Origin: Candidatus Nomurabacteria bacterium
GTDB lineage: Bacteria > Patescibacteriota > Minisyncoccia > Phycocordibacterales > UBA918
Assembly (NCBI GenBank): GCA_020632095.1
Contig: JACKGF010000001.1
Span: forward strand, 605,366 to 669,365
DNA: 64,000 bases
Direction: 5' to 3'
The translations under genes were made by a program, and so were the position numbers. Positions 1-57,164 of this stretch are shown piece by piece. The notes below the pieces were generated by a model that was given only the letters and a program-made list of their open reading frames with translations, did not search any database and was not told the DNA's origin. Every line of letters starts with the position of its first letter. Position 1 is the stretch's first letter.

Positions 1-305
1 CCTGCCACGCACTGTCTCGATGTGGTTTTACCACACCGGTTAGAGACTACCAAAATGAAGGGAAGTATTTCACTGGCGACTCCACGGTACCCGAAAGCCC
101 GCTTCAAAGTCTTCTTCCTATGCTACGCATCAAATCAATAGCCCCAATACGAAGCTACAGTAAAGCTCCTGGGGTCTTTTCGTCTAACTGCAGGTACCCG
201 GCATCTTTACCGGGATTGTATTTTCACCGAGCAGGTCCTCGAGACAGTTTCCCACTCATTACGCCATTCGTGCACGTCGGAACTTACCCGACAAGGAAAT
301 ACGCT

Positions 306-525
306 CTATATTTCCTTCTCCTACAACTTATTTGTAGACATTTCACAATAGGACTCTATCTTAACCCGTTATTCCGAAGAACACTTGGGTCTGCAACATT
401 TGGTCTCTTGTTGGTTGCATTTGGATTATGTTTACATTTCTGCAAACAAGGTAACTATGGCTAGGCTGTTTAACCTATAACCGTTCCAATCCGTCGAGCG
501 CACTATTTATTGGATAATGTGCTCG
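306..525 (-). other. 220-nt insertion in 23S exactly after the U equivalent to E. coli U1931. Candidate small ORF-less group I intron or intervening sequence.
   Basis: rRNA-sense flanks read TAATCGTTCTAAGGT | insert | AGCGTATTTCCTTGTCGGG, against E. coli ...CGGUCCUAAGGU AGCGAAAUUCCUUGUCGGG. The upstream exon ends in U and the insert ends in G (...GGAAATATAG), as a group I intron would. L1931 is a known rRNA intron site. Confidence 0.5.
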
Positions 526-731
526 ACCTTAGAACGATTATAGTTATCGCTGACATTTACCGGGGCTTATACAGTCCAGCATAACAATCCGAAGATCATT
601 ACACCCCCCGTATTTAACCTTCCGGCATAGGTCAGGCGTCACCCCCTATACTTCCACTTTCGTGTTTGCAGGGAGCTGTGTTTTTGTTAAACAGTTGGCA
701 GGAAATCTTTCGCTGCGGCCCAATACACCAC

Positions 732-1029
732 TTTAGTCTCAACCAGGTTTGATTTTTAACTAAAGTACAAATCGTTGCCTCAAACTAAAACCTTGATTCA
801 AATTTCAGTGTGACAACATCAATAGTTCCGCCGGATTCAATATGCTTTCCAGTCAAATCTCCCAAGGGAGAGATATCTGCAGTAAAGCGAAACTCACAAC
901 TATCGCCATTGGCATCTACGCCACTAACGATGAATGTTCCGTTCGGATTGTCGAGACTTCCTTGCAATAAAGTTATCTCGACTGACCCTATTATTTTCAA
1001 TTTCATTCCACTTTCTCCTTTGTTGAGAA
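732..1029 (-). other. Expansion/insertion of about 300 nt in the 23S domain IV region (E. coli ~1700-1760, helix 63 area), closed by a long-range stem.
   Basis: Flanks 713-731 (ctgcggcccaatacaccac) and 1030-1048 (gtggtgtattgggcagacc) are inverted complements. Conserved 23S sequence resumes on both sides. E. coli has about 80 nt here against about 350. Confidence 0.55.
785..1006 (-). CDS. 73-aa ORF inside the 23S insertion, preceded by a canonical Shine-Dalgarno sequence. Function unknown; coding status uncertain.
   Basis: Minus-strand sequence upstream of the ATG reads aaaGGAGaaagtggaATG. The ORF lies fully within the insertion and on the same strand as the rRNA. No homing-endonuclease motif recognised. 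Confidence 0.3.
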   Translation of the reverse strand: MKLKIIGSVEITLLQGSLDNPNGTFIVSGVDANGDSCEFRFTADISPLGDLTGKHIESGGTIDVVTLKFESRF

Positions 1030-1573
1030 CAAAGTGGTGTATTGGGCAGACCTTATCCCTAAGTTACGGTCGCTTTTTTGCCGAGTTCCTTGAGGACCTC
1101 TCACTCGTTCGCCTTAGTCTTCTCGACTCTACCACCTGTGTCGGTTTGCGGTACGGAACCATTATGCTTAACCCAAACGAAGTTTTTCTCGGAAGCGTGC
1201 TCCCCACATCGGATCGGCCGTAGCCTCACCTTCAGACCCTACTCGGACTTGTGCCTCCCGGATTTACCAAAAAGACATCCTCATAGTTCCAACTCCAATC
1301 CAATAAGGAGCTGCGGGTACAACGCTCCGTCCCTCCATAGGAACATAACAGTGTGCAGGAATATTAACCTACTATCCATCGGGTCCCCCATTCGGGATTC
1401 CCTTAGGACCGACTAACCCTTCGCTGATCAACATCGCGAAGGAAACCTTGGTATTTCGGCGGGCAGGGTTCTCACCTGCCTTGCGGTTACTTGTGCCGGC
1501 ATTCTCACTCCTCCTCGCTCCACCGCGGCTCTCGCCTTGGATTCATCGCAGAGAAGGACGCTCTCCTACCACT

Positions 1574-1737
1574 CGTAGGCTTCATTGAGGATTCAAGCAT
1601 TGCTTGAATCAAGAAAATATTGATGAGGTAGATGGAATCGAACCAACGACCTTTACCTTTACAGGGTAACGCTCTACCGTCTGAGCTATACCTCGTCTAA
1701 TATTTTCTCAAAGAACTTTTCCTCAATGAAGCCTACG
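1574..1737 (-). other. Helix-45-type intervening sequence in 23S. An 18-bp stem encloses about 130 nt and replaces the short E. coli hairpin at ~1170-1190.
   Basis: Arms 1574-1591 (cgtaggcttcattgagga) and 1720-1737 (tcctcaatgaagcctacg) are perfect inverted repeats. Flanks align to E. coli CTGCGG / GGTAGGGGAGCG. Helix 45 is a classic site for RNase III-excised intervening sequences. Confidence 0.6.
1623..1695 (-). ncRNA. tRNA-like cloverleaf (anticodon GUA, class I-like with a 5-nt variable loop) inside the helix-45 intervening sequence. No encoded CCA.
   Basis: Sense CGAGGTA-TA-GCTC-AGACGGTA-GAGC-G-TTACC-CTGTAAA-GGTAA-AGGTC-GTTGG-TTCGATT-CCATC-TACCTCA-T. Canonical D-arm (A14, G18 G19). U33 and purine 37 present. 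Perfect T-loop TTCGATT. Acceptor 6/7 bp and T-stem 4/5 bp. Confidence 0.4.
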
Positions 1738-1821
1738 AATCCGCAGTTTCGGTAATATACTTGAGCCCCGATCATTTTCGGCGCAAGGACTCTCGACCAG
1801 TGAGCTATTACGCTATCTTTA

Positions 1822-1856
<35 letters not shown>

Positions 1857-2417
1857 TGAGGAATCCTCACCTCCTCATTTTGCACTGAGTATATATTTTG
1901 GGACCTTAACTGGCGATCTGGGCTGTTTCCCTTTCGACCAATGGAGCTTCGCCCCCATAGTCTAACTGCCGCGTTCTTGACCTGCTGGTATTCGGAGTTT
2001 GATAAGAAAGACGAGATTTCTCCCTGTTCTTTCTTTCCAGTGCTCTACCCCCAGAGGGAACACGCGACGCCAACCCAAAAGCTGTTTCGGAGAGAACCAG
2101 CTATTACGGAATTCGATAAGCTTTTCACTCCTTACCACAAGTCATCCGATGATTTTGTACGGTCAACCGGTTCGGGCCTCCACGACCTATTACAGTCGCT
2201 TCACCCTGCTCATGGCAAGCTCATCCCGCTTCGGGTCGTACCCCTACCCTATATTCGCGCTATTCACGCTCGCTTTCACTACGCCTCCGTGGGTTGCCAC
2301 TTAGACAAAGGATAAAGGTACACTCGCCGGCTCATTCTTCAATAGGCACGCCGTCGCCCCGCAGGGCTTCGACTCCTTGTAGATGTATGGTTTCAGATCT
2401 ATTTCACTCCCCTCTCC

Positions 2418-2463
<46 letters not shown>

Positions 2464-3013
2464 TTCAAGAATATTTAGCCTTACCAGTTAGTACTGGCAG
2501 ATTCACCCGAGCTATTCATGTCTCGGGCTACTCAGGAGTAGAACCAAAAGAGTCAGATACATTTCGAATACAGGGCTATTACCTACTGGGGCCACGCTTC
2601 CCAACGTGTTTTCCTATATATCTGTTTTGTAACTCTCCGCAACTAAATGCAGATTCTATCCTACAACCCCATACATATAAATACGTATGGTTTGGGCTTC
2701 TCCCGTTTCGCTCGCCGCTACTTAGGGAATCGCAAGAACCTTCTTCCTGATTATAATGGCACAACCGAAGTTGTATCTAATCAGAAAGAAAATTCCGTTT
2801 ATTGCTTTCTATTCCTACAGGTACTGAGATGTTTCACTTCCCTGCGTACGCTCCCTCATACAAGGGTCACTGCCGATGACAGTGGGGTTTCCCCATTCGG
2901 ACATATCCGGGTCAAAGGTTATTTGGCACCTCACCGAATCTTATCGCAGCCATATCACGTCCTTCATCGCTTCTTGAAGCCTAGGCATCCACCATACACC
3001 CTTTGTTCCTGTA

Positions 3014-3057
3014 AGGAACGTTGAACACCATCGCTACAGCGATGGTGTTCAACGTTC
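3014..3057 (-). other. Perfect 20-bp hairpin immediately 5' of mature 23S (leader / processing element).
   Basis: ggaacgttgaacaccatcgc-tac-agcgatggtgttcaacgttcc. Confidence 0.5.
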
Positions 3058-3792
3058 CTTGCTTTGTTCGCTCGCTCGATCATGGAAGAGTAAACTCTTC
3101 CGCGATTCTCGCTCGCTCCAAAGTAAGGAACAACACCATCGACTGTAATAAGGTTATTACGTTCCAAACAAAAACGCTGTGCACCGCTGCACAATTTTTG
3201 AGTGTCGTCCGGAGACTATCGCGTTACAAACATAGTCGGCTGACGCCTTCTTGTTTGTGTAACGCTCCGCATAAGTAAATCATAGTCGAGCAAAGCTCTC
3301 CTTGATTTTCTAATATATACTCCGGACTCATTCGTACTGCACTAGACGCTTTTGAAAATCTAGGGCAGTACTGTGTTTTGTTTTGATGTGTGTCGGGGAC
3401 GAAAAGACCTGTCCGAAGACAAACTCTAACCCGACACACTACCTACTCTGTACATCACTCACTTGCGTGCGTGATGTACAGAATTTGCCTACCGGGCGTC
3501 GATTCCACGGTAGGACTTTGCGAAGTGGGTCTTATCAACCCCACCTCAGTCCGAAGACTGAAGTGCTTTACTTCTGAATATGCGATTGTATGGTCAAGCC
3601 ATACAACCCCCATTCGTTCGGTCATACGAAAGTAAACTTTCGTGCGACGCTCACTCATGGGAATTGTCAAATATCGCGTACCTCCTTGAGTCTGAATAAA
3701 AAAGCCGCAATCTCGCGGCAAGTCACATCGCTAATGCGAATCTCTTGCTACGAAGCTTTCTTTTTTCTCAAACTCATAAATACGTGATGGCC

Positions 3793-5981: not shown

Positions 5982-5994
5982 TTTAAACTGGGGT

Positions 5995-6466
5995 GCATTC
6001 ACCCCAAGAGTACTTCCATTTTTATAGTCGACTGACGTCTCCTTAAAAATTAGGGCGCGCATAGGCCCTGCTGAAGTTGGTTTTTGTTGGAGATGGTTGG
6101 TGGTGCGCCGATATTTTGCCCTAGGAAAGGGGCAAAATACTGGCGATGCATTCACCCCAAGGGTACTTCCATTTTTATAGTCGACTGACGTCTCCTTAAA
6201 AATTAGGGCGCGCATAGGCCCTGCTGAAGTTGGTTTTTGTTGGAGATGGTTGGTGGTGCGCCGATATTTTGCCCTAGGAAAGGGGCAAAATACTGGCGAT
6301 GCATTCACCCCAAGGGTACTTCCATTTTTATAGTCGACTGACGTCTCCTTAAAAATTAGGGCGCGCATAGGCCCTGCTGAAGTTGGTTTTTGTTGGAGAT
6401 GGTTGGTGGTGCGCCGATATTTTGCCCTAGGAAAGGGGCAAAATACTGGCGATGCATTCGCAATAG
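5995..6466. repeat. 153-bp tandem repeat, three near-identical copies plus a partial fourth start.
   Basis: Copies start at 5995, 6148 and 6301 with one mismatch in total. Each unit holds hairpins ttttgccc-tagg-aaa-ggggcaaaa and agggc-gcgcatag-gccct. The minus-strand ORF 5937..6368 simply reads a 51-aa peptide three times. Confidence 0.9.
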
Positions 6467-7465: not shown

Positions 7466-7954
7466 TTACTTAAGAGTTACCTTAGCTCCAGCTCCTTCGA
7501 GCTTGGCTTTTAGTTCTTCAGCGTCTTCCTTCTTTAGACCAGCCTTCACTTCTGCTGGCGCTCCGTCTACCATTTCCTTAGCTTCCTTAAGACCTAGTCC
7601 GAGCACTTCCTTAACCACCTTGATAACAGCAATCTTCTGCGCTCCAGCTTCTGTTAGTTCAACAGTGAACTCTGACTGCTCTTCAGCAGCGTCACCGCCA
7701 GCAGCTGGACCAGCTACTGCAACAGCAGAAGCAGATACACCAAATCGCTTTTCTAACACCTTCACAAGTGAATGTAGTTCCAGTACTGACATGTTTTCAA
7801 CTTGCTCGATAAGCTTCTTGAATTCTTCAGGCACTTCTACTGATTCATCAACGTCTGATACAGCTTCTTCTTTTGCAGCTTCTACTACTGGAGCCGCTTC
7901 TTCTACTACTGGAGCAGTCTCTTCGACTACTACTGTTTCTTTTTCATCACTCAT
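7466..7954 (-). CDS. rplL: 50S ribosomal protein L7/L12.
   Basis: C-terminal [27 protein letters not shown]...[11 protein letters not shown] is the canonical L7/L12 CTD. Acidic/Ala-rich N-terminal extension. Confidence 0.9.
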
Positions 7955-8215
7955 AGTAATTTTGTTTAAGTTTTGCCAGAGTGTTCTAGCAATTTCCTCT
8001 AGGAAACGAGGAAATTGAGAACTAAATTCAGAATAGTCGCTCGCGCTCCTTTCTTTATTTATCGTCTGACATATTAATATTATTAGTTTAATCCTGAGTC
8101 TTTTAGAAAGTGGAATTTTGCTTTAGACACGCGAAGCACAAGGAAATTTTTGTGAGCCGTACAAGTGTACGGTGAATAAAAATTTCTGCAGTGCGCCAAA
8201 GTGAATGAAGTGAAA

Positions 8216-8701
8216 TTACGCTTTCTTATCGGCGATAGCGTTTAGCCCGATAACTAGACCCTGAATCGGAGAATTGATAACGTTTACAAACATACCTCGT
8301 AGTACTTGTAGTGGTGGGATTGAAGCAATCTCAGTCATTTCACTAGCGTTCTTGTATACGCCTTGGAAGATTCCTCCAGCGATAGCAAGATTGTTCTTGT
8401 ACTTAGTGGTAAATTCTTTAATTTGTTGCGCTGGAGCAATTGCGTCTGCACTGTATGCAACCGCGATTTCTCCGTCTAGAGCGGGCATTTCGCCTTCGTA
8501 GGCACCATCAAACGCTCGCTTCATCAATGTCTTCTTGGCCACAAAGTAACCAACATTTTCACTTCGCAACTTAGTTCGCATCGCAGTTGTATCAGCCACG
8601 GTCATCCCGTTAAACTTAACAAACACGATTGATTCAGAGTCATTTTTAACTCCAGCGAGTTTATTTAGAATCGTTTCTTTTTTTGCTTTTGTAATTGCCA
8701 T
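8216..8701 (-). CDS. rplJ: 50S ribosomal protein L10.
   Basis: L10-like sequence immediately upstream of rplL. About 270-nt leader upstream (8702-8970). Confidence 0.88.
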   Translation of the reverse strand: MAITKAKKETILNKLAGVKNDSESIVFVKFNGMTVADTTAMRTKLRSENVGYFVAKKTLMKRAFDGAYEGEMPALDGEIAVAYSADAIAPAQQIKEFTTKYKNNLAIAGGIFQGVYKNASEMTEIASIPPLQVLRGMFVNVINSPIQGLVIGLNAIADKKA

Positions 8702-12849: not shown

Positions 12850-13527
12850 TCAATCTTCCACTTCTGTATAAGAAAGCCATTCTTCCATTTCGTCGTCGTA
12901 ATCTTTCTTATCTAGAAAATACTCTGGGAAGTTTTCAGTATTTAGAATTTTGGATTCTGGTCGCACAATACTATGGTCTAAATAACTAGAGTGGCTGTAA
13001 TTTCTAAGGTATTCTAATACTTCTGCCTTATCTTTTATCCCCTTCTCTCGCCAATCACTTTGAATCAATTTCACTGGATTCAAGTGAATATAGGAAAATA
13101 AATATTTAAGATACCCATCATCGTCAACGTGCTCCGACTTATACCTTCCTTCAAACAATGATCCAGTACGAAAGTTCTTCTTGTTAAAATACATCGAGTA
13201 ACCAGTTGATAATTTCTTCAAAAAGGCAGTCACTCCCCCATCAACTAGTGGTGTGAGCAGTATATGGAAATGATTTGGCATTAAGCAATACGCGCCGATC
13301 GCGACTTGCTGTTGACCTCTGTTAAAATCAAAAACTTTATCTTTATCAATATCTCGAAACTCAAACGAGGTAGTTCCATTCGAAATATATAATAACGCAC
13401 TAAATCTAGCGTAATCATCACTTGTGAGGAAAATTGCTTGTCGGGAGTTTCCTCTATTATATATATGATAGTACTCTCCTTCAGCAAACGGAATTTTTCT
13501 TCCTGACATCACTGGATTATACCACAC
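12850..13527 (-). CDS. Y1 HUH tyrosine transposase (IS200/IS605 TnpA-like / REP-associated tyrosine transposase).
   Basis: HUH motif CLMPNHFHILL. Tyrosine-containing YIHLNPVK motif. N-terminal YHIYNRGN. Flanked by inverted REP-like units. Confidence 0.75.
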   Translation of the reverse strand: MWYNPVMSGRKIPFAEGEYYHIYNRGNSRQAIFLTSDDYARFSALLYISNGTTSFEFRDIDKDKVFDFNRGQQQVAIGAYCLMPNHFHILLTPLVDGGVTAFLKKLSTGYSMYFNKKNFRTGSLFEGRYKSEHVDDDGYLKYLFSYIHLNPVKLIQSDWREKGIKDKAEVLEYLRNYSHSSYLDHSIVRPESKILNTENFPEYFLDKKDYDDEMEEWLSYTEVED

Positions 13528-13753: not shown

Positions 13754-14158
13754 TTACGGACTCAGAAAACTTCTTAACTTCTCTTTAATCTGATTGAGCG
13801 TTGCCTGTGGTATTTCATACAACTTTCTATTGAACCGACGCACACTCACTAATTTCATCTGCGCTAGAATTACCGATACTTTCTGCTCGTGTATATCCAT
13901 GAAGTTAAAATAGAAATCTAAATTTTTTTGCTTTGACGATAAGGGAACACACCAGAACATATGATTGTTGAATTTTTTAATGACAAGCAGTGGTCTTGAA
14001 AAATTGCTTCCACCTCCATTTTGTTCATATCCAATATTCTTACCAACGGCAGACATCCAAACCTCTCTTTCCTTAGGAAAGAAGCCCACTTCAGCAGTGT
14101 CTGATTGGATCTTCTTTTTTAATGAATTCCAACCATCAAACTCTTTCAAATCGTCCAT
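13754..14158 (-). CDS. PemK/MazF-family toxin-like endoribonuclease with no obvious cognate antitoxin ORF.
   Basis: EVWMSAVGKNIGYEQNGGGSNFSRPLLVIKKFNNHMFWCVPLSSKQK matches the MazF/PemK core pattern (GxEQxGxRPxLVxS...VIxxPxTS). Confidence 0.55.
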   Translation of the reverse strand: MDDLKEFDGWNSLKKKIQSDTAEVGFFPKEREVWMSAVGKNIGYEQNGGGSNFSRPLLVIKKFNNHMFWCVPLSSKQKNLDFYFNFMDIHEQKVSVILAQMKLVSVRRFNRKLYEIPQATLNQIKEKLRSFLSP

Positions 14159-14189: not shown

Positions 14190-14470
14190 AAAACTACACA
14201 GACCTGTCTTTTGTAGACGTTATTACACCACACATTATTTTTCCGGAGGACCGACCTCCGGAGTTGATCTTTGTAGACGTTATTACACCACACATTATTT
14301 TTCCGGAGGACCGACCTCCGGAGTTGAAAACTACACAGACCTGTCTTTTTGTAGACGTTATTACACCACACATTATTTTCCGGAGGACCGACCTCCGGAG
14401 TTGATTTTTTCGGAGGACCGACCTCCGGAGTTGTTATTTTTTTCCGGAGGACCGACCTCCGGAGTTGTTT
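14190..14470. repeat. Array of REP-like palindromic units: five copies of the 19-nt hairpin ccggaggaccgacctccgg and three copies of a ~60-bp composite unit.
   Basis: Hairpin copies at 14243, 14303, 14380, 14410 and 14444. The longer unit gtagacgttattacaccacacattatttttccggaggaccgacctccggagttga occurs three times. ORF 14180..14371 is a translation of the repeats. Confidence 0.85.
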
Positions 14471-14483
14471 GTTTGGGACACCA

Positions 14484-16620: not shown

Positions 16621-17282
16621 TTACGTGAGCTTTATTTTGATAAGTCTAATAATATGAATTAATTCATATTCGTAAACGGCTTATCAGGCTACTTACGTAA
16701 TATCACTAACTCCATACCCGAGAGCATGAAGGTTAGCTGCGAAATGAGTCTGTGTGTCTGTGGGGCAGTCAGGACGGAAAAAGGTAAAGCGGGACACAAC
16801 CAAAAGAAATTGGGTGTGGATTTGTTTTGTTTTATATATATGGAGAGACTTAACATAAGAAAGCGTTAACTTATCCTGCGAAAGTAGGTCCAGCGATTCT
16901 CCCTAGGAAAGGTCGAATCGGGACATAAATTCGTAGTAGTCGCTACGCTCGTCTACTCATTTATCAAAGAACGTTACAACACCCTGTGCTTAATCTAGGT
17001 AGATGGAGCTTGCAGGTACTGCCTGTTTGCGTCCGCTCGACTTAGAAAAAAAGCGCACATGCGCGTATCTAGATAATAACACAAATTAAAGAATTCGTAG
17101 AGTTCACAGACTGTGGATACATGTTGTTATAAGATAACTAAATGTAAACGTAAAGACCGTAAACCTCTCATTTATACTTTAAAAAATATCATCTCTATCT
17201 GCTGTTTATGACGATACATCCTGCCAGTTCTTACCGAGTAAAATATTACAATACAATTTTTTAAGGTGGCAAGTTTTGTTTG

Positions 17283-20628: not shown

Positions 20629-20997
20629 ATGTCTGAAAACATTTCTTTCCGCACCATCATTAAGTTTGTTTCAGGTTTAGTCTTATCATTATTAGTATTA
20701 ACTTACGTCACTTTTCAAGCCAGATATTTAATTATTGGCCCCCAAATTATCCTCACTGAAGACCAAGAAGTTACGCAAAACCAAAGACAGATATTTCTAG
20801 TCGGACACGCCTACAATATCTCTCACTTGTGGTTAAATGACCGGTCTATATACACCAATGCACAAGGGGATTTTAAGGAAGCATTAGTCCTCGAAAACGG
20901 CTATACTGTAGCTACCCTCCGAGCAGAAGACCGGTATGGACGCGAAACCAAAATAATCAGATCATTCGTCTACACCCCAGCGTGTTTTATTAAATGA
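20629..20997 (+). CDS. Small membrane-anchored hypothetical protein.
   Basis: Starts 3 nt after the ftsK stop. N-terminal TM. Confidence 0.4.
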   Translation: MSENISFRTIIKFVSGLVLSLLVLTYVTFQARYLIIGPQIILTEDQEVTQNQRQIFLVGHAYNISHLWLNDRSIYTNAQGDFKEALVLENGYTVATLRAEDRYGRETKIIRSFVYTPACFIK

Positions 20998-21073
20998 AAA
21001 AACGAGCGTAGCGACTATTTTGAATTTACATCTTTTCTCAGCCTTTCCAAGCTGAAAAAATATGTCAGGGCTC

Positions 21074-49158: not shown

Positions 49159-49947
49159 TTAATCCTTCTGGTCGTAAAACGGCTTAAGTAGTGGGTAGAA
49201 AATATCCTCTTTCGGTGCTCGGAAAACTTCGTGCCTAGTATCATTTTTAGTAAATTCCAACTTCGGGACACCACGAACAATAATCAACGGCGTACATTCG
49301 TCGGTCTCTCCGCTGACCGCTCCACTTCCGGCGGCGATACAATCTACAATGTTAGTAGACGCATACACGATTGAACGGCCAAACAAATCTTGCTTGCCTT
49401 TATGGCTTTCTATTGGATGAAAACCCCACCACCCAATTGACACCCCAATCGCTCCAGAACGCATTGGTTGAGAGTGACTATCAGTAATTATGACACCTAC
49501 ATTTTTCAACTTATGAACGCCGGTTAAGTACTGCCAAATACGTTCAGCCTCATCAAACGGTTTATCGGGTAACAAAATACTATGCCCATCTGCGTTCGAT
49601 TCGTCTATCCCCGCCGCATAGAATAGGGCGTGGTGCTTAATCGCCAAAGGCGACATTTGATAGCGCGAATGACCTTCAAGTAAATAATCCGCTTCTTGTT
49701 CAACCAATTCCCGCTTACTCACTTCTCCAATCGGCACACACCGCCCCTGATGAATAGAGACAATCTTCGAAGTAACTAGGAGAATATCGCCGTCTTGCAT
49801 ACCAGACACTGACTCAGCGAGTAGTGAAAATAAATCATCCTGCGGCGGCTGCATAACTCGGGTTTTGATTGGGATATATTGCATCGACACAGTATAGCGA
49901 TTTTTGGGAAAATATAAATAAGGCCGTGGTCTCCTGCGGGAGACCAC
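49159..49947 (-). CDS. CofE-like gamma-glutamyl ligase family protein (F420-0:gamma-glutamyl ligase fold). Candidate alternative folylpolyglutamate synthase.
   Basis: GDILLVTSKIVSIHQGR matches the CofE N-terminal motif. Gene abuts folA convergently. Confidence 0.55.
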   Translation of the reverse strand: MVSRRRPRPYLYFPKNRYTVSMQYIPIKTRVMQPPQDDLFSLLAESVSGMQDGDILLVTSKIVSIHQGRCVPIGEVSKRELVEQEADYLLEGHSRYQMSPLAIKHHALFYAAGIDESNADGHSILLPDKPFDEAERIWQYLTGVHKLKNVGVIITDSHSQPMRSGAIGVSIGWWGFHPIESHKGKQDLFGRSIVYASTNIVDCIAAGSGAVSGETDECTPLIIVRGVPKLEFTKNDTRHEVFRAPKEDIFYPLLKPFYDQKD

Positions 49948-49971
49948 GGCCTTATTTATATTTTCCTCTAA

Positions 49972-50397
49972 CTACCCCTCCACCTTTACCCCCATAGTGA
50001 AACAAGTTCCTTCGACAATCTTCATCGCTGCTTCGATTGAAGCGGCGTTTAGGTCAGGCATTTTTTCTTCGGCGATTTCACGCACTTGAGCTTTAGTAAG
50101 TGTACCAATGAAAGAAGTTCGATTCTTTGAAGAACCCTTATCCTTACCTAGCTTTTGTAGTACCAAACGTGACATTGGAGACACTTTAACCACAAAGTCA
50201 AAACTGCGGTCATCGTAAACATTGATGATAACAGGCACAATTTGTCCCATTCGTTCCCGAGTTTGCTCGTTAAATTGGTTAACGAATTCACCAATATTAA
50301 TACCAGCCTGTCCCAATACTGGACCCAGTGGTGGAGCTGGCGTAGCCTTACCACCCTTAGCTTGTACCTTGATTTGTTTTAATAGTTTTTTAGCCAT
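49972..50397 (-). CDS. rplK: 50S ribosomal protein L11.
   Basis: KGGKATPAPPLGPVLGQAGINIGEFVNQFNEQT. Confidence 0.92.
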   Translation of the reverse strand: MAKKLLKQIKVQAKGGKATPAPPLGPVLGQAGINIGEFVNQFNEQTRERMGQIVPVIINVYDDRSFDFVVKVSPMSRLVLQKLGKDKGSSKNRTSFIGTLTKAQVREIAEEKMPDLNAASIEAAMKIVEGTCFTMGVKVEG

Positions 50398-50500
50398 GTT
50401 TCTTTAGTTAATTTTTTGTGACAAATGCGTTCCATAACCACACCCATCTGAAGCCCGCGTATCGTACAAGAGAAACCGTTGTTTTGCAAGAGTCCGCAAA

Positions 50501-51130
50501 TTAGACCGTAATTCCCAACTTGCCCAAATCAGACCAAAGTTGTTCATTATTTTTATACAAAACTGGAGTGTAACCCAAAACATCTGCACTTTCTAAACTC
50601 TTGGGTGTATCGTCAATAAATACCACCTCGCTTGCCTCTAATTCCAATACAGAAAACAGGGCGTCGAAAGCTTCTTTGCTCGGTTTTTGAAAACCAATTT
50701 CACCAGAAATAACTACCTTATCAAACTTATCCAGCAACCCATTAGCATTTAGAATCTCGCGTAATTGTTTTGTGTAGTTACTAAATACTGCGACCAGATA
50801 ACCTTTTTCCCGCAAAAGAGAAATATTACTAACTAATTCTTGATTAATTACATTGCACTTGTCTCTTTCTTCACTAATTCTTAACACAAAATCCCTTGCC
50901 TCTTGAGAGGCATCGAATACAGCAACCACCTTGAGAAACATCTCGTCCCAGGAATCACTACCTACATTAGCTAAATGATTGTATTTGAAATACTCACTCT
51001 TAAATTCCTCTAGAGGCACATTCAAATAGTCAGCCACAACACCAAGTATACTGCCGTAAGTATTTGTCTCTAAAACTCCACCGTAATCAAAGACAACTGC
51101 TTTGTATTTATTATTGTTTGTAGGGTTCAT
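50501..51130 (-). CDS. HAD-superfamily hydrolase.
   Basis: VVFDYGGVL N-terminal motif. C-terminal FIDDTPKS. Confidence 0.7.
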   Translation of the reverse strand: MNPTNNNKYKAVVFDYGGVLETNTYGSILGVVADYLNVPLEEFKSEYFKYNHLANVGSDSWDEMFLKVVAVFDASQEARDFVLRISEERDKCNVINQELVSNISLLREKGYLVAVFSNYTKQLREILNANGLLDKFDKVVISGEIGFQKPSKEAFDALFSVLELEASEVVFIDDTPKSLESADVLGYTPVLYKNNEQLWSDLGKLGITV

Positions 51131-51149
51131 AGAGATATTTTATCAGTTC

Positions 51150-52225
51150 AATACTTTTCCAAAAAGTGGAGTAAAGAAACTTTTCGGGGCCTATTTAATC
51201 CCCATCTCCTTTAAGTAACTGACTGATAAGCTTATACCTGCGATCTCTTCGCAATCCATGGTGGGCAGCGATTTTCTTTTTAACGGAAGCAAAGTACCCA
51301 TCTATGGTGTTGGTAGTATTTGGAATATTGAGACTAGGATATCTCTGATAAGTGAATAGATTGTATAAATTTGTCTTCAACGAACGAAGCGCTGAACGCA
51401 CTTTTTTATGTGTGTATTGAGGACGATTAAGACCAAGTATAATGGTCTTCTCTTCCAGAAAAGATTTCCATTTATTCTCATAATCCACTAGTGCTTTAGA
51501 GAATGTTGTTTCATTAGTTTTGGTGAGAGTGAGAGCTAATACTCGCAACTCTTTACCGGCCTCTGTCCTTGGTCTCTTGGTGAGGTATTTGGTAACAGTA
51601 TGTAGTTGGTGAAAGTGGCAGACTTGAACTGGTATATCCTTGAAAACATTGGCTAAACCCCGCCTACCATCGATTACTGCAGCCGAGAAAGTCCAACCCT
51701 TGTCTTCCAAGATTTTACAACCGTAGTGATAGTGAGCTACCCGCTCAGAAGCTACTTCACCCCACCATAAGTTTTGTTTTAGATCCCAAGAGCGAAAGAC
51801 ACAAACTCCATAGGAACGACCCCAGAAGGTAGTGTCGGCCACAATAATTGTCGCTTGTGGCGCGAGTTCTCTTGGTAGTGGTACGTTTGTCCTTTCTAGT
51901 AGCTTGCGTACCCACACGTGACTCTTTCCATATGATTCACTCAACTCCTTAAGTGTTTGTTTACCGCTAGAATATTCTTTCCACAGCACAGCTTCTCGTT
52001 TTTTAGTGTTTCTCTTCGCTCTGAATTTCTTTCTACATTCATTACATTGATATCTTTGCACACCATCTTGTTTACCTTTCTTTTTAGTCCGTAGCGACAT
52101 ACAATGCGGACATCTAACCTGTTTTCTAGACATTGGGTTAGATAATCACAAAACCACCGCTCTGTTGAGCGGTGGTTTTGGTGTTTTAGGCCCCGAAAAG
52201 TTTCTTTAGCCCCAAAAAGTAGATA
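51150..52225 (-). mobile_element. IS1-family insertion sequence (~1.07 kb) with ~22-bp terminal inverted repeats and a single fused transposase.
   Basis: IRs taaagaaacttttcggggccta at 51168-51190 and inverted at 52187-52209. Internal hairpin terminator at 52149-52179. Confidence 0.65.
51195..52133 (-). CDS. IS1-family transposase (InsA-like zinc finger fused to a DDE domain).
   Basis: CPHCMSLRTKKKGKQDGVQRYQCNECRKKF closely parallels the IS1 InsA zinc finger (CPSC...RYLCSHCRKTW). Confidence 0.65.
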   Translation of the reverse strand: MSRKQVRCPHCMSLRTKKKGKQDGVQRYQCNECRKKFRAKRNTKKREAVLWKEYSSGKQTLKELSESYGKSHVWVRKLLERTNVPLPRELAPQATIIVADTTFWGRSYGVCVFRSWDLKQNLWWGEVASERVAHYHYGCKILEDKGWTFSAAVIDGRRGLANVFKDIPVQVCHFHQLHTVTKYLTKRPRTEAGKELRVLALTLTKTNETTFSKALVDYENKWKSFLEEKTIILGLNRPQYTHKKVRSALRSLKTNLYNLFTYQRYPSLNIPNTTNTIDGYFASVKKKIAAHHGLRRDRRYKLISQLLKGDGD

Positions 52226-52464
52226 AAGTAAGGTTTGTTGTCGCTACAAAGTAAAAGTGCCACCCTCCTTAGCAACCCGCTACAGCAGATTCTCCCCTTG
52301 GCAGGCCTGAGCCATGCATACAGAGTTTATTGTCCCTGTCCCCTTTTTTTCTGGGGCATTTTTGGGCAAGGCTAGTTACCAACACCTTGTCTACTTAGCA
52401 AAAGCTGTTTGCGGCGATATAGTCTAAATACCTAGGTAATTAAAAACTAGTCCGTAACGATGCT

Positions 52465-53046
52465 TTAGAAGTTATCGTGTGTTGCGGGTGTTCTTTTGAA
52501 TTCGGATAGTTCATTGACATTCTTAATAATCAATTCTTCGTATTGAGGATCAAACGTTGCAAACGGTAATTTTTCTTTCAAATCAGTCATGAATCGTTTG
52601 ATGGTTTCTAGGGAATAGTTAGCTTCACGAACTTGCATGAGTGGGCCGTCGTCTCCGTAGAAGGCCATAAATGAACCAAAGTTAGAAATTAGAATATTCT
52701 GTCTCACCCTCCTAACTTCCTTAACGTTGTGAATTGGTACTTTTTCAGATCCTCTGAAATCAAACTGTCCAGAACTAATCAATTCACTACCCGTGATTTT
52801 AAGCCATGTTTTCTGATCAAGCCACCAAGCTAATAGTAATGGCGCAACTAACAAACTAACAGTTAATGAATCTAGTTCTATATCAAATCCGCCCCGTTCA
52901 AGATAACTAATTAATAGTATTGCTACATGAGCACAGATAATAGTAATTAGAGAAGAATAGTTTGATGAATATTTTTTAGTCATGGTCATCATTCTTTTCC
53001 TCTTCACTACCTCTAACAAATGCTTCAAAGGCTGCCACTTTCGCAC
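52465..53046 (-). CDS. Membrane protein with two TM helices and a bacterial PH-like domain (cargo between IS elements).
   Basis: Two TM helices then a ~110-aa domain with the bPH_2/YdbS-like pattern. Confidence 0.4.
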   Translation of the reverse strand: MRKWQPLKHLLEVVKRKRMMTMTKKYSSNYSSLITIICAHVAILLISYLERGGFDIELDSLTVSLLVAPLLLAWWLDQKTWLKITGSELISSGQFDFRGSEKVPIHNVKEVRRVRQNILISNFGSFMAFYGDDGPLMQVREANYSLETIKRFMTDLKEKLPFATFDPQYEELIIKNVNELSEFKRTPATHDNF

Positions 53047-53110
53047 TTGACTCTGTTATGAGCTGTCCAAGTTTCCCCTCCGAAGGTCCGTCCTTCGGAG
53101 TTATTAACTG

Positions 53111-54259
53111 CTATATATTCTGATTGTCATCACACAAAATATGATCTGGATAGTTGCCTCTGGTATTTGCCTTAGGGAAATACTGAACCATTGATCCAGG
53201 CTCCAAACGTACTACAGTTTCTCTTTCTGAAATTCGAACATCAGGATATACCCCGTCATAGTTCCAACTCTCACTATCACTAATCACATGCATCTTACCT
53301 TTAACAAGTTGCCAGGACCATCCAGTGCTATTTCTCAAATTTGCACTACTTAGAGTGATTAAATCATCAGGTTTCACTCTGACTATCGGGCCACGAGGTT
53401 TTATATTATATTCATAATCAGGTGATGCAACTAGAATATTGCCTGGCTCCAGAAGTCTTTTGTTGTTTAACTCTGCGCTGTCAGTGTATATCTCTCTTTC
53501 ATCTAAAGTTCTACCAACATACTCAGTAAGTGCTTGTAATCTAGCGGGTAATGAATCACCTTGTTTAAAATTGGCTAGATATTCACTTTCTATCCCCTCT
53601 CTATTGACATGACTACTAATTTTGTTAAAAAACTCAACTGAATCTTCCTTGTTAATAATCCGACTAATCACATGATGACATTTCCAGTAGGTATATTTAG
53701 GATTGTTTTCTTCATCAACTTCAGCTGACTCCACTTCATCATACATCTCTTTTACTAAATATCCATCAATTACATAAGTCCCCGTATCGTGATCAGCACT
53801 GTTAGCCGGAGTACTGTCCATAAAAATTGGCACGTCTAGAACTACCCCCTCATAATCTATATCATCAGAGTCCTCACTCAGCTTATCTTTTAGCTGAGAA
53901 ATCGTATTCAATACAGAATCTGGAATAGTATAACCATACATCACACCTTCTTTTGAAGCCAGGTCAGGATTAATTGTCTGATAAAATGATCCCGGACTTA
54001 TCTCCCTTCCAATATCTCTCAAGAAATAACTATCATTATTTGAAACATACTCCCCTGTAGCAATTTTATTTCTTAGTTTTTCTAATGAATAATTTCTTGA
54101 AGACTTTTCTTCTTCAACCATATTATGTAATTCTTTTAAGCCGAGAGACGCAACAGCCTCTTTTCTCTTATCAATCAAATCTATAGAGTCATCAGGGGTA
54201 GATGTAGGTGATGTTTGAGGAATATTTTCTAAACTCATATATAATGGCCCTGTTGCCAA
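53111..54259 (-). CDS. Hypothetical protein (cargo between IS elements). The likely true start is the ATG at 54238.
   Basis: Long ORF. The annotated start is TTG, with an in-frame ATG 21 nt downstream. No recognisable motif. Confidence 0.45.
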   Translation of the reverse strand: MATGPLYMSLENIPQTSPTSTPDDSIDLIDKRKEAVASLGLKELHNMVEEEKSSRNYSLEKLRNKIATGEYVSNNDSYFLRDIGREISPGSFYQTINPDLASKEGVMYGYTIPDSVLNTISQLKDKLSEDSDDIDYEGVVLDVPIFMDSTPANSADHDTGTYVIDGYLVKEMYDEVESAEVDEENNPKYTYWKCHHVISRIINKEDSVEFFNKISSHVNREGIESEYLANFKQGDSLPARLQALTEYVGRTLDEREIYTDSAELNNKRLLEPGNILVASPDYEYNIKPRGPIVRVKPDDLITLSSANLRNSTGWSWQLVKGKMHVISDSESWNYDGVYPDVRISERETVVRLEPGSMVQYFPKANTRGNYPDHILCDDNQNI

Positions 54260-54338
54260 TCATCCCCACCCTCTAACCAATAATCCCCCTCAAAAAATGT
54301 TATAATATGGTCAATTAACCCTTAATCCTAGCCATATT

Positions 54339-55325
54339 ATGCAGACTCCAGCCGACCCAACCACTAAGTTAAACCTTTCCACCGAAGCTGAAGTCTTCGC
54401 TCTCATCATTACTCCGAACCACCCCTTCAAACGCATCAACGACATCATTGATTTCAATACGCTAGCTGAACCAATGCGCGCTACCTATTCCACTATGGGA
54501 GCAGCTGGCATTGACGTTGAGAAAGGCATCAAAGCTTTGTTAATCCAGTTCTGGGAAGACTATAGTGACCGTAACATGGAGAAAGCTCTCCGCGAGAACC
54601 TGGCCGTCCGCTGGTTCTGTGGTTTTGGTCTAACTGACCCCACTCCAGACTTTTCATACTTCTCTAAACTCAGAAAGCGGATTGGCACCAAACGCATCGC
54701 TACCATGTTTCAAGATATTAACGCTACCCTAGAAACCCACGGTCTCTTTGGTAACGTCTTCACCTTCATTGATGCTTCTACCATCATCACTAAAGCCGCC
54801 CTGTGGGAAGAGCGAGATAAAGCGTTAGCTGATGGAGAAAAGAAGCTGAACAACAGCAATGTGCAGAAGTACGCAGCTGACAGTGATGCTAAGTGGGGAG
54901 CAAAGTCTAAGAATAAGATTTGGTTTGGTCACAAGCGACATCTGTCTGTCGACATGCGTCATGGGTTAATCGTCAAGTCAGCGGTCACCAATGCCAGTGT
55001 GCCTGATTTCAAGACTGTGAGAAGTATCCTACCGAAACAAGGAGCGGTCTTTATGGATAAGCTCTATGATACCAACTTCACTAATCAGGTGGTGACCGCT
55101 CAGGGTTGTCACGTCGCTACCATTCAGAAAGATAATCGAAAAGACCGAGACAGGGACCTTAACTCCTGGCGGTCAAAAACTCGCATGCCGTTTGAGAATG
55201 TATTTTCCAAGTTAAACAAACGTGCTCGCTACCGCGGACACGCTAAAGTGACGATGCAAGGGTTTATGCAGGCGATGGTTCATAATTTGAAGAAAGCTTT
55301 GGTTCATATACCACAAACTACTTGA
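54339..55325 (+). CDS. IS5/IS1182-family DDE transposase.
   Basis: InsH-N-like segment (LLIQFWEDYSDRNMEKALRENLAVRWFCGF). FIDASTI. FGHKRHLSVD. C-terminal RMPFENVFSKLNKRARYRGHAK (IS5 YREK-like region). Confidence 0.75.
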   Translation: MQTPADPTTKLNLSTEAEVFALIITPNHPFKRINDIIDFNTLAEPMRATYSTMGAAGIDVEKGIKALLIQFWEDYSDRNMEKALRENLAVRWFCGFGLTDPTPDFSYFSKLRKRIGTKRIATMFQDINATLETHGLFGNVFTFIDASTIITKAALWEERDKALADGEKKLNNSNVQKYAADSDAKWGAKSKNKIWFGHKRHLSVDMRHGLIVKSAVTNASVPDFKTVRSILPKQGAVFMDKLYDTNFTNQVVTAQGCHVATIQKDNRKDRDRDLNSWRSKTRMPFENVFSKLNKRARYRGHAKVTMQGFMQAMVHNLKKALVHIPQTT

Positions 55326-55368
55326 ACGAGGGAGTCCTGGGTCTGGACAAAGAAAAAGAGACATAATT

Positions 55369-55418
55369 ATAACCAAAACACTCTCCACTGAATTAAAATT
55401 CAGTGGAGAGTGTTTTGG
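55369..55418. repeat. Perfect 24-bp-arm palindrome inside the right end of the IS5-like element.
   Basis: aaccaaaacactctccactgaatt-aa-aattcagtggagagtgttttggtt. Confidence 0.8.
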
Positions 55419-55499
55419 TTGAGAGGGCTAGAGTGGAAAGTGGAGTTTGGCAACGGGGCCATAATATCATTAAACTTTTATATGATATTATTATCTCAA

Positions 55500-56050
55500 A
55501 TAATATTGTATTAATCTAGGGCGTAGTGAGTCGCTACGCTCCTTAAACCTTCTTGTCAACCCGCTGCAGCTAGATTCTCACCTTGGCAGGCCTGAGCCCT
55601 GCATACAGAAAATATTGTGTAAATCAAGGAGAGTAGCGACTATGATTTTCATACGACGTAGTGAGTCGATAAGCTCATTATTTTCCAGCAATCTAGCTAA
55701 GCGTCTGCATAAGAAGTTTATTGTGTAAATTAAGGAGAGTAGCGACTATGATTTTCATACGACGTAGTGAGTCGATAAGCTCATTATTTTCCAGCAAAAT
55801 CCTAAGCTTCTCAGGGAAAAAGAAAATTAATTGCGTTCGAGTTTACGTTCCATCAATTTGGCCTAGGACAGGGCCAAATTGGGAACTAAGAAGTTTATTG
55901 TGTAAATCAAGGAGAGTAGCGACTATGATTTTCATACGACGCAGTGAGTCGCTACGCTCGTTAAACCTTCTTGTCAGCCCGCTGCAGGCTTTTTCTCCCT
56001 TGGAGGTCGAAAAATCCTAAGCGTCTGCATAAGAAATCTATAGTCGTAGC
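55500..56050. repeat. Complex repeat field. Three copies of a ~105-bp unit (tattgtgtaaatcaaggagagtagcgactatgattttcatacgacgtagtgagtcg...) plus members of a dispersed ~70-100-bp family (gtcgctacgctc..ccttcttgtcaacccgctgcagc..agattctc.ccttggcaggcctgagcc.tgcatacag).
   Basis: Unit starts ~55609, 55715 and 55895. Family members at 55510-55615 and 55940-56000, also 52258-52330 and 16930-16960. ORF 55721..56020 merely reads through the repeats. Confidence 0.8.
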
Positions 56051-56061
56051 AAAGCTACTCG

Positions 56062-56607
56062 TTAGATCTTCTTAATTTGCAAGAAATCCAATTCTACTGG
56101 GGTTTCGCGGCCGAACATGGAGACTAGGACTTTGACCTTTCCGCTCTCTTCATCTACTCCACCCACCTTTCCTTCAAGGTCTTTAAATGGACCGTCGGCG
56201 ATAATAACCATGTCTCCAGCTGAGAAATCAACCTTATGCTTAACAGTTTCATTAGACATTCGCTTCATCAAAGAGTTGTATTCTGCTTCGGTTAGTGGCA
56301 CTGGCTGTGTTCCACTGCCAACGAATCCTGTCACTCTTGGAGTATTTCTAACCACAAACCATGATTCATCATCAACTACCATTTCCACCAAAACGTAACC
56401 CGGATAAATTCGTTCTTCTTCAACAATTCTTTTACCACCCTTAACCCGGATCTTCTTTTCAGTTGGAACTACGACATCAAAAATCTTATCGTTCATGTTT
56501 AATGAAGCAATACGTTGCTTTAGGTTACGAGTCACAGCGTTTTCGTATCCAGAATAAGTGTGAATAGCGTACCAATGTCTTTCACCTGTACTATGTTGTT
56601 TTGCCAT
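56062..56607 (-). CDS. nusG: Transcription termination/antitermination factor NusG.
   Basis: NGN domain WYAIHTYSGYENAV. C-terminal KOW (GDMVIIADGPFKDLEGKV). Confidence 0.9.
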   Translation of the reverse strand: MAKQHSTGERHWYAIHTYSGYENAVTRNLKQRIASLNMNDKIFDVVVPTEKKIRVKGGKRIVEEERIYPGYVLVEMVVDDESWFVVRNTPRVTGFVGSGTQPVPLTEAEYNSLMKRMSNETVKHKVDFSAGDMVIIADGPFKDLEGKVGGVDEESGKVKVLVSMFGRETPVELDFLQIKKI

Positions 56608-56611
56608 ATAT

Positions 56612-56800
56612 TTAGAAAGTATCGACTACAAATTTGATAACTTGAGAGAAAAGGAAGTCAAATGCGCCCACGTAGAGGGCCACCACAGTAGAAATACCAA
56701 TTACCAATACTGTGTAAAGCATTGCTTGGTGTTGGGTTGGCCATGAAACTTGCTTGAGTTCATTGGCGGTGTCACGAAAATATTTTGTTAGATTGTCCAT
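56612..56800 (-). CDS. secE: Preprotein translocase subunit SecE.
   Basis: 62 aa. ELKQVSWPT motif plus a single TM. Immediately upstream of nusG. Confidence 0.75.
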   Translation of the reverse strand: MDNLTKYFRDTANELKQVSWPTQHQAMLYTVLVIGISTVVALYVGAFDFLFSQVIKFVVDTF

Positions 56801-56934: not shown

Positions 56935-57055
56935 AAATTGAGACATAAATTCGTAATATGTCCGGTAGACATTTACTCATTTGGTCAGAATTTGCCCAAG
57001 GCAGGACAAATTCTGACATAAATTCGTAATATGCCCTGCGGGCATTTACTCATTT
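56935..57055. repeat. Two tandem copies of a structured repeat (gacataaattcgtaatat-hairpin-catttactcattt) plus flanking 11-bp-stem hairpins. A third copy is at 16926-16970.
   Basis: 56943 gagacataaattcgtaatatgtccggtagacatttactcattt. 57017 ctgacataaattcgtaatatgccctgcgggcatttactcattt. Hairpins caatttgtggc...gccacaaattg and gtcagaatttg...caaattctgac. Confidence 0.7.
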
Positions 57056-57164
57056 AAAAAACGCCTTCGGCGGCGGATTCATATATAATACGCCAAATAA
57101 AACAAAAGTAAAGGGTTTTACGCCTAAGTTCAAGAAATAACCGCAACATATACTACACCACGAA

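Follow-up and report, generated by a model that had tools for sequence, protein, structure and literature searches.

We examined the interval between nusG and rplK, the gene for ribosomal protein L11, in a 64,000-nucleotide stretch (hereafter the window) of contig JACKGF010000001.1 from GenBank assembly GCA_020632095.1. The host is a Parcubacteria/Paceibacteria genome of ~1 Mb, entered in its records as Ca. Nomurabacteria or Ca. Kaiserbacteria. In the window, secE, nusG and rplK lie in the same orientation on the minus strand, and nusG and rplK are separated by 5.66 kb. An earlier reading of the DNA letters (hereafter the sequence-only reading) had attributed this separation to one ~5.6-kb mobile-element insertion that split the conserved secE-nusG-rplK cluster. 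Our results very probably point to a different history, in which the interval grew by layered accretion at the boundary of separate transcription units and was not opened by one mobile element breaking an operon.

Two independent insertion sequences

Read along the minus strand, the order of features is secE, nusG, a block of repeats, an IS5-family element, an open reading frame (ORF) of 375 aa, an ORF of 172 aa, a repeat piece, an IS256-family element, a gene for a HAD-IA phosphatase (HAD), and rplK (Table 1). The two insertion sequences (ISs) together make up 2.26 kb of the 5.66-kb interval.

The transposase of the element nearer to rplK (312 aa) scored 315.4 bits over residues 10-308 against NCBIfam model NF048019 (IS256 family, Zn-binding variant; cut-off 150). 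The IS1-like label given to this element earlier had to be dropped: the IS1 model NF033558 gave 31.9 bits versus a cut-off of 100, matched the N-terminal zinc-ribbon only, and was not accompanied by a Pfam DDE_Tnp_IS1 match. The element is bounded by 22-nt inverted repeats (repeat I2; 51172-51193 and 52187-52208) that match at 100%. Copies of the 9-bp sequence CCAAAAAGT sit 3-4 bases outside these repeats. Target-site duplications of 8-9 bp are typical of IS256 elements. The element inserted 28 nt ahead of the start codon of HAD. No second copy of the element was seen, and its intact ends and duplication are what point to activity.

A homologue of the IS256-Zn transposase (33% identity) was observed in two otherwise near-identical contigs, at 5373-6296 in L219 and at 258-1181 in L220; both contigs carry secE-nusG-HAD-rplK. 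Because the position of the homologue differs between them, these contigs suggest that the IS256-Zn family is active in related genomes too.

The transposase of the second element (328 aa) scored 146.8 bits against NCBIfam NF033581 (IS5_4; cut-off 140) and contains the Pfam domains DUF772 (74 bits) and DDE_Tnp_1. Thus, the first half of the label "IS5/IS1182-like" stood; the second half did not, as the IS1182 model NF033551 gave 149.6 bits in three partial stretches versus a cut-off of 270. The inverted repeats of this element, GGCCCTGTTGCCAA and TTGGCAACGGGGCC, are 14 nt long and match at 13 of 14 positions. Exact-protein look-up placed the transposase on 15 contigs, and the segment 54245/6-55461/2 recurred at 100% identity in at least six other flanking contexts (L091, L093, L094, and L097-L099), as copies of 1,216-1,217 bp. 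These identical copies in other contexts fixed the ends of the element (GGCCC...GGGGCC) at 54246-55460. The element is flanked by the 5-bp duplication ATAAT, whose left copy begins 3 nt before the ATG that opens the 375-aa ORF; in L094, another copy of the element is flanked on both sides by ATCAA. A duplication of 5 bp, seen in these two cases, is not known to be typical of the best-known IS5 subgroups. The insertion probably uncouples the 375-aa ORF from upstream signals.

Both elements therefore have terminal inverted repeats and target-site duplications, CCAAAAAGT (9 bp) and ATAAT (5 bp), and the IS activity proposed by the sequence-only reading, together with the duplications for which it suggested a search, was confirmed. 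The single ~5.6-kb insertion was not: the ISs are of two unrelated families, have separate duplications, and total 2.26 kb. The two insertions are independent, and a composite transposon was rejected on the same grounds of family and duplication. The duplications and the 100% identity of copies suggest that both insertions are recent.

rplK as its own transcription unit

The 100 nt upstream of rplK aligned at 74-95% nucleotide identity in more than 35 relatives; the rest of the 5.66 kb found none. The alignment contains CTTGCAAAA, ~13 nt, and TTCTTGTACGATAC, which we read as a putative -35 element (TTGCAA), a 17-nt spacer, and a -10 element (TACGAT), conservation being what suggests promoter function. 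Downstream is a structured leader comprising an invariant GCUUC, two stems that differ in sequence between species, and a conserved loop, UAUGGAA. The inner stem was recovered by RNAalifold with compensatory changes in 4/4 pairs. Covariation in the outer stem was seen by eye only, and RNAalifold did not recover this stem. The leader had no Rfam match other than chance-level ones at permissive E-values.

The HAD stop codon abuts the promoter-like sequence, within a HAD-to-rplK spacer of 103 nt, so all inserted material lies upstream of that sequence. Indeed, neither IS touches nusG, rplK, or the promoter-like sequence and leader of rplK. Because of this, these ribosomal and transcription genes should be expressed normally, and nothing points to harm to the expression of nusG or rplK.

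At the other end of the gene, a terminator-like hairpin with a 20-bp stem directly follows rplK, which is why rplK looks monocistronic. In several close relatives, a terminator-like hairpin and a T run occur right after nusG. Distant relatives with nusG-rplK gaps of 17-25 bp have no promoter-like sequence or leader, and their rplK is presumably co-transcribed with nusG. Based on the conserved promoter-like sequence and leader downstream and on the hairpins after nusG in relatives, the IS insertions fall between transcription units. The proposal that a functional operon had been disrupted thus conflicts with the conserved promoter-like sequence, the covarying leader stem, and the terminator-like hairpin of rplK.

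L1 is the usual repressor of the L11 operon. If L1 is missing, the rplK leader cannot be an E. coli-type L1-binding site; in L1-less organisms, it may be a novel leader of a ribosomal-protein gene, with L11 itself as the possible sensor.

The nusG-rplK spacer in relatives

To place the window among its relatives, we scanned one genome per species and obtained 80 loci with NusG 74-93% identical, all from Parcubacteria/Paceibacteria metagenome-assembled genomes (MAGs) under assorted candidate names. Neighbours were searched by tblastn with the window proteins (E <= 1e-5, at least 50% query coverage) in flanks of up to 10 kb per side. The relatives have a common backbone of M10 peptidase, SIMPL, secE, nusG, rplK, (cofE), dhfr on the opposite strand, and a CYTH-domain gene. 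The sequence-only reading had held that relatives with the same arrangement but without ISs would speak against disruption. This is largely what was found, as the 80 relatives share secE-nusG...rplK-(cofE)-dhfr.

secE-nusG and rplKAJL-rpoBC is the organisation of E. coli and most bacteria. Using E. coli L1 in tblastn, we found no rplA beside rplK in the 80 relatives, and queries with L10 and L12 from the window found no rplJ-rplL near rplK within the same flanks. Because both features are the same in 80 relatives, the absence of rplA beside rplK and the separation of rplJ-rplL are traits of the clade and not effects of the insertions. In the 64-kb window, the L1 query returned one match (E = 0.5), inside an ORF that Pfam assigns to an IS200-like Y1 transposase. 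Within that span, then, the reported absence of rplA was upheld. Pfam likewise confirmed the co-oriented secE-nusG and rplK, the location of rplJ-rplL ~41 kb from rplK, and the CofE-like gene in place of rplA. The last of these is a CofE/F420-ligase-like (folate-glutamate-ligase-like) gene that lies directly 3′ of rplK and adjoins dhfr (Pfam, NCBIfam). With a terminator-like hairpin and this gene after rplK, and the same in 80 relatives, a canonical secE-nusG-rplKAJL cluster was rejected. The "own leader" ascribed to rplJ had no Rfam L10-leader match; nothing more than a terminator-like hairpin and ~220 untranslated nt lies upstream of the gene. The missing rplA is in line with the literature, as the sequence-only reading had suggested: Brown et al. 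(2015) were the first to report that a Parcubacteria subgroup lacks L1, and work on complete genomes has since confirmed it again (bioRxiv 10.1101/2022.01.07.475337).

Both genes were present at 74 loci, where nusG and rplK lay between 17 and 4,677 bp apart (median, 298 bp). Gaps larger than 0.55 kb hold ORFs unrelated to each other. From the starts of their sequences, we guess that these encode a glycosyltransferase, a large PEP-utilising-type enzyme, LysE-type exporters, a HicA/HicB-like pair, and a guanylate-kinase-like protein. Neither the two unknown ORFs of the window nor its transposases recurred in the relatives' gaps (tblastn).

HAD behaves as a resident of the locus. Its homologues are many in Parcubacteria, at 44-62% identity. 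In L216, whose NusG is 94.5% identical and which is the closest relative seen, HAD lies 41 nt after nusG. The order secE-nusG-HAD-rplK occurs in L219/L220 (NusG 89.5% identical) and L052 (NusG 81% identical); one HAD homologue lies elsewhere, behind hisS. The identity of HAD, 45-62%, matches that of other non-ribosomal neighbours at the same divergence. The simplest reading would be an old nusG-HAD-rplK arrangement that was lost in many lineages, and the view of HAD as mobile cargo was abandoned, given that HAD directly follows nusG in these relatives. Because HAD is an old resident, the lineage-specific material is confined to 51131-56061.

A structured repeat family at the 3′ end of nusG

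The "dense repeats" of the sequence-only reading were found at 55517-56061, with a further copy at 52264-52333. They were searched using nhmmer and then a covariance model, R1, which yielded 54 matches (E <= 1) in the window and relatives, 11 of them in the window. In the copy nearest to nusG (copy 1), nusG itself supplies the 5′ arm of the first hairpin, with its final codons and its stop; a second hairpin comes next. Nested and inverted copies fill 55517-55975 (repeat families D1-D5). The piece at 52264-52333 and the segment 55548-55618 are each other's best match, with 86% identity over 71 nt and 92% over 53 nt.

The element was seen 3′ of nusG in L003, L007, L013, L017, L019, L024, L035, L041, and the window. 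Its order is as follows: last codons of nusG and stop, (A/C)GGAG, a short stem-loop, CGACUAU, the reverse complement of the nusG end, and a second hairpin. Compensatory changes are present in the orthologous copies that 10 relatives carry at the 3′ end of nusG, and the pairing of the arms tracks the coding sequence, as in L013 (AAGCGGGTTTA/TAAACCGCTT) and L024 (AAAAGAATTTA/TAAATTCTTT). The same architecture with other arms occurs behind SIMPL (L004, L041, L075, and L050), behind a ~565-aa reading frame (L002), and behind a 122-aa ORF at 20629-20997 of the window. Its occurrence behind many other genes led us to reject tandem duplication of the nusG 3′ end by an integrase as the source of the repeats.

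Support for the structure came from three sets of copies. In a hand-picked alignment of 20 copies, 84% of cells were paired versus 67% when shuffled and 31-49% with slid partners, and double changes occurred in 11/15 pairs. For a test on metagenomes, we used an exact 25-nt pattern in which nothing but the core and a portion of the 3′ arm was fixed. The pattern matched 115 stretches, in which the model found 91 copies; in essentially all of the 77 distinct sequences, the 5′-arm positions left free by the pattern, three in number, are paired to the 3′ arm, using four pair types. Finally, RNAalifold applied to 45 full-length copies gave two hairpins with compensatory changes in 14/25 pairs. Unpaired features are conserved as well. 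Hairpin 1 has two tandem G.A motifs, UGA(R)...(Y)GAA and GAGC...GCGAC, arranged around a GAGC-loop-GCGAC core, and hairpin 2 has a CCUAGG-type loop. A kink-turn or C/D-box reading of the G.A motifs was rejected, there being no 3-nt bulge.

About half of the copies near nusG loci have the stop codon of an upstream frame of at least 60 codons in their 5′ arm, as do 16/80 metagenome copies; because of the latter figure, the overlap is frequent and not obligatory. Copies nested in the apical loops of other copies were found in L016, L032, and at 55880-55975 of the window, and this nesting suggests that the repeats may be mobile. The rplK leader hairpin, ~60 nt away, has its apical part replaced in L004, L008, and L010 by a copy whose 5′ arm is of the nusG type (ATTAAGAAGGTTTAA). 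Dispersed copies, also noted in L101-L180, occur at about one per 5-10 kb in these genomes, and one window copy, at 8023-8061, lies between rplJ and rplL. In view of that copy and of the lack of a T run after the hairpins, the idea that the repeats are intrinsic terminators was dropped. Nor did we find terminal inverted repeats with duplications or a linked transposase.

No Rfam family matched the repeats at gathering level, and matches at permissive E-values were at chance level only; the gathering-level matches in the window were the 23S rRNA and one tRNA only. A brief literature search found no description of the family. Based on these data, we tentatively propose, at somewhat less than even confidence, an undescribed ~85-nt two-hairpin family that is abundant in Paceibacteria and may have a role in mobility or recombination, together with the rplK leader as a new leader.

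Two further repeats were observed in the window. At 5987-6459, a 153-bp unit is repeated 3.1 times at 99% identity and contains a variant of the repeat core (TTTTTAAGGAGACGTCAGTCGACTATAAAAATGGAAGTACCC, minus strand); a 143-aa ORF called there is probably spurious. A second family of long intergenic hairpin repeats was found at 8110-8200 on the minus strand (...CTTTGTCG.TACG-AAAATTT-CTCA-CCGTAC...GTACGG-CTCAC-AAAATTT...). It lies in the rplJ-rplL spacer here and in the 3′ flank of nusG in L014-L016, L020-L023, L025, L027, L029, L033, and others.

Cargo ORFs

The two cargo ORFs placed between the IS elements by the sequence-only reading are present and without family match, but their reading as cargo of a single unit was not sustained. 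Neither has a family in Pfam, NCBIfam, PHROGs, or PADLOC. The 375-aa protein found only itself among 5.8 billion clustered proteins (k-mer search) and 1.84 billion representatives (exhaustive phmmer), and a single-sequence AlphaFold2 model was unusable (predicted local distance difference test score, 32). The 172-aa protein has two homologues only, of 72% and 62% identity, on short contigs from other organisms. One homologue overlaps its upstream ORF by 8 nt (L221/L222) and the other starts 4 nt after it (L223/L224). These upstream ORFs differ from and are unrelated to the 375-aa ORF and are Gly/Ala-rich near the C-terminus, a layout that resembles that of toxin/immunity pairs.

The direct repeats at 52264-52333 and 55548-55618 bracket both cargo ORFs and the IS5-family element. 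The G+C content of the cargo ORFs, 0.35-0.38, is slightly below that of the surroundings; that of the IS5-family element is higher, at 0.46-0.48. No integrase-like ORF was found between 50.4 and 56.1 kb among the ORFs or by Pfam and NCBIfam. An integron cassette array was rejected, as there is no IntI and the repeat arms TAAAC/GTTTAA do not fit the attC cores RYYYAAC and GTTRRRY.

Insertion history and alternative explanations

We propose that the interval was built in four layers. In the first, the clade ancestor would have had no rplA, with rplJ-rplL elsewhere and rplK standing alone with its promoter-like sequence, structured leader, and terminator-like hairpin. The second, also old, would comprise the HAD-IA gene between nusG and rplK and the structured repeat overlapping the nusG stop codon. 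In the third, which would be lineage-specific, a two-gene orphan cassette came to lie between two direct repeat copies and the repeats multiplied by nesting; the flanking repeats suggest that the cassette may have arrived via recombination at repeat copies. The fourth and recent layer would consist of independent transpositions, the IS256-family element landing upstream of HAD and the IS5-family element upstream of the 375-aa ORF.

Several observations weigh against parts of this history. An empty-site allele was recovered for neither IS: the search for the empty site proposed by the sequence-only reading was unsuccessful, as exact-protein look-ups gave the same arrangement or contigs broken at the ISs. 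The L091 copy of the IS5-family element is without a duplication, and several IS5-bearing metagenome contigs join one window flank to a foreign flank; we read these contigs as assembly chimeras over a multi-copy element and not as alleles. The promoter-like sequence of rplK matches 8/12 consensus positions and was not listed by a simple scan, which needs 9/12. The absence of rplA in the source genome refers to the 64-kb window only. Finally, the flanking repeats are the one pointer to how the cassette arrived, and no relative shows cargo so bracketed.

The alternatives survive to different degrees. The strongest, which we nonetheless consider doubtful, is that recombination at the structured repeat, either site-specific or driven by homology, brought in the orphan cassette and the variable cargo of relatives, the repeat acting like an attachment site at the nusG 3′ end. 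The locus would then be a cassette hotspot, and this explanation competes only with illegitimate recombination as the route of the cargo. It draws on the direct copies that bracket the window cargo, the nusG-type-arm (ATTAAGAAGGTTTAA) copies inside the rplK leader hairpin of three relatives, the copies nested in the loops of other copies, and the great diversity of cargo at the site. However, no recombinase is linked to the site, the large-insert relatives L009, L035, and L049 have no bracketing copies, and the repeats occur all over these genomes and not only between nusG and rplK.

Far less probable is the idea that a working secE-nusG-rplK(-rplA) operon was split in recent times by one ~5.6-kb mobile insertion of ISs and cargo, in the form of a composite transposon or island. 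Two transposase genes do flank two unknown ORFs, and nusG and rplK are 113-190 bp apart in the closest relatives that lack the insert. Yet the ISs are from different families, the duplications bound each IS and not the whole segment, HAD is kept at the site in other lineages, rplK comes with a conserved promoter-like sequence, a leader, and a terminator-like hairpin of its own, and rplA is absent from beside rplK clade-wide.

An assembly artefact, a chimeric join at repeated IS copies, deserves almost no credence: short-read metagenome contigs do break at, or are chimeric over, the IS5 copy and the repeats, but JAGQMI010000055.1, from a separately deposited MAG (GCA_020428725.1), spans secE to rplK, aligns to 50037-56736 over the full 6,700 bp with 1 mismatch (99.985%), and is collinear at all junctions. 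In addition, L081 spans both IS256 junctions, and these are also reproduced in L082; L087 and L095 span one IS5 junction each; and matched duplications on either side of each IS are expected of true insertions. The remaining contigs end at IS ends or within repeats, as expected of repeated DNA. The concern about mis-assembly raised by the sequence-only reading was thereby answered, and layered accretion remains the explanation that we favour.

Table 1. Features of the nusG-rplK interval and of related sites in the window
Feature	Position	Strand	Basis or remark
secE	56612-56800	-	Pfam SecE, 59 bits
nusG	56062-56607	-	Pfam NusG and KOW
Repeat copy 1	55976-56076	-	model R1, 57 bits, E = 2e-10 for 56023-56076
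Repeat block, ~0.55 kb	55517-56061		then a short AT-rich stretch
Repeat copy with 56-nt apical insertion	55880-55975	-	model
Repeat copy inside the apical insertion of 55880-55975	55897-55943	+	model
Repeat copy	55720-55766	+	model
Repeat copy	55612-55660	+	model
Right 5-bp target-site duplication, ATAAT	55461-55465		from sequence
IS5-family IS, 1,215 bp	54246-55460	+	IS5 model and identical copies
Transposase ORF, IS5-family element	54339-55325	+	NCBIfam, Pfam
Left 5-bp target-site duplication, ATAAT	54241-54245		from sequence
Orphan ORF, 375 aa	53111-54238	-	no family match
Lineage-restricted ORF, 172 aa	52465-52983 (ORF to 53046)	-	no family match
Partial repeat copy	52264-52333	-	direct repeat with 55548-55618
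Right 9-bp target-site duplication, CCAAAAAGT, IS256-family element	52212-52220		repeat D6
IS256-family IS (Zn-ribbon variant), 1,044 bp	51168-52211	-	NCBIfam NF048019 and inverted repeats
Transposase ORF, IS256-family element	51195-52133	-	NCBIfam
Left 9-bp target-site duplication, CCAAAAAGT, IS256-family element	51159-51167		
HAD-IA phosphatase gene	50501-51130	-	Pfam Hydrolase/HAD_2
rplK promoter-like sequence and structured 5′ leader	50398-50497	-	nucleotide conservation
rplK (L11)	49972-50397	-	Pfam Ribosomal_L11_N and Ribosomal_L11
Terminator-like hairpin, 20-bp stem, directly 3′ of rplK	49915-49958		
rplJ	8216-8701	-	Pfam L10
rplL	7466-7954	-	Pfam L12
Stronger dispersed repeat copy	57012-57059	-	covariance model
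Stronger dispersed repeat copy	20988-21035	+	covariance model
Stronger dispersed repeat copy	16919-16966	-	covariance model
Stronger dispersed repeat copy	8023-8061	-	covariance model
Stronger dispersed repeat copy	3265-3316	-	covariance model

Other observations in the window

The 23S rRNA gene (window 1-3015, minus strand) is interrupted: 3015-1696 corresponds to positions 1-1225 of the Rfam LSU model and 1621-1 to positions 1167-2265. A tRNA-Tyr(GTA) gene lies on the same strand exactly at the junction (1622-1695; 65.6 bits in Rfam, also called by ARAGORN), and ~520 extra nt occur further along the gene. The junction is near what we take to be the helix-45 intervening-sequence site. A tRNA within the 23S gene would imply fragmentation of the rRNA by tRNA processing.

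A weak IS200-like Y1 transposase ORF (12850-13527) adjoins a PemK/MazF toxin gene (13754-14158), which is followed by arrays of CCGGAGGACCGACCTCCGGAG hairpins (14210-14478). The segment 12850-14480 could be a REP/RAYT-like or IS200/IS605-like arrangement (REP, repetitive extragenic palindrome; RAYT, REP-associated tyrosine transposase).

Significance and comparison with known systems

IS insertion into an intergenic spacer is routine and L1 loss in Parcubacteria is already published, so the finding as first stated adds little. The classical secE-nusG-rplKAJL cluster had already broken up in this clade, and rplK is self-contained. Accessory genes have landed repeatedly in the nusG-rplK spacer, and synteny breaks there should not be taken for operon damage or mis-assembly. 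The structured repeat family and the rplK leader, neither of which is in Rfam, are the more novel by-products; they could bear on gene expression and genome plasticity in ultra-small bacteria. The repeat may work as RNA or as single-stranded DNA, or may simply be selfish DNA. If it is a functional RNA or single-stranded-DNA structure and is either mobile or a substrate for recombination, it would drive plasticity of gene order in ultra-small genomes.

As in E. coli, secE, nusG, and rplK are co-oriented and in canonical order, and the nusG/rplK boundary separates transcription units, rplK having its own promoter-like sequence and leader. Unlike in E. coli, the window has no rplA, rplJ-rplL is 41 kb off and is not followed by rpoBC, rplK looks monocistronic, and the spacer holds HAD, orphan genes, two ISs, and repeats.

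The element next to HAD resembles the IS256 family in its transposase, which scores above the curated cut-off, its terminal inverted repeats, and its 9-bp target duplication, but is short for the family at 1,044 bp. The second element shares with the IS5 family a DUF772 and DDE_Tnp_1 transposase, 14-nt inverted repeats, and identical copies at multiple sites; it departs from the family in that its transposase also scores, below cut-off, against IS1182.

The structured repeats are similar to REP/BIME, REPIN, and MITE repeats (BIME, bacterial interspersed mosaic element; MITE, miniature inverted-repeat transposable element) in being short, palindromic, multi-copy, intergenic, and mosaic or nested, as well as gene-oriented and tolerated inside operons (rplJ-rplL). 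They differ from all of these in their two-hairpin architecture, G.A motifs, CCUAGG-type loop, and the stop codon that is often in the 5′ arm. In the comparison with REP/RAYT systems, the repeats are multi-copy and no model match flanks the weak Y1_Tnp ORF; in that with MITEs, there is no consistent duplication or parent IS, and copies are nested.

Integration hotspots between core genes are an established concept of comparative genomics. The nusG-rplK spacer is like them in its conserved flanks and in a length and content that vary among relatives. It is unlike them in its small scale (0-4.7 kb), in involving no integrase or tRNA, and in its cargo, which consists mostly of single housekeeping-like or orphan genes.

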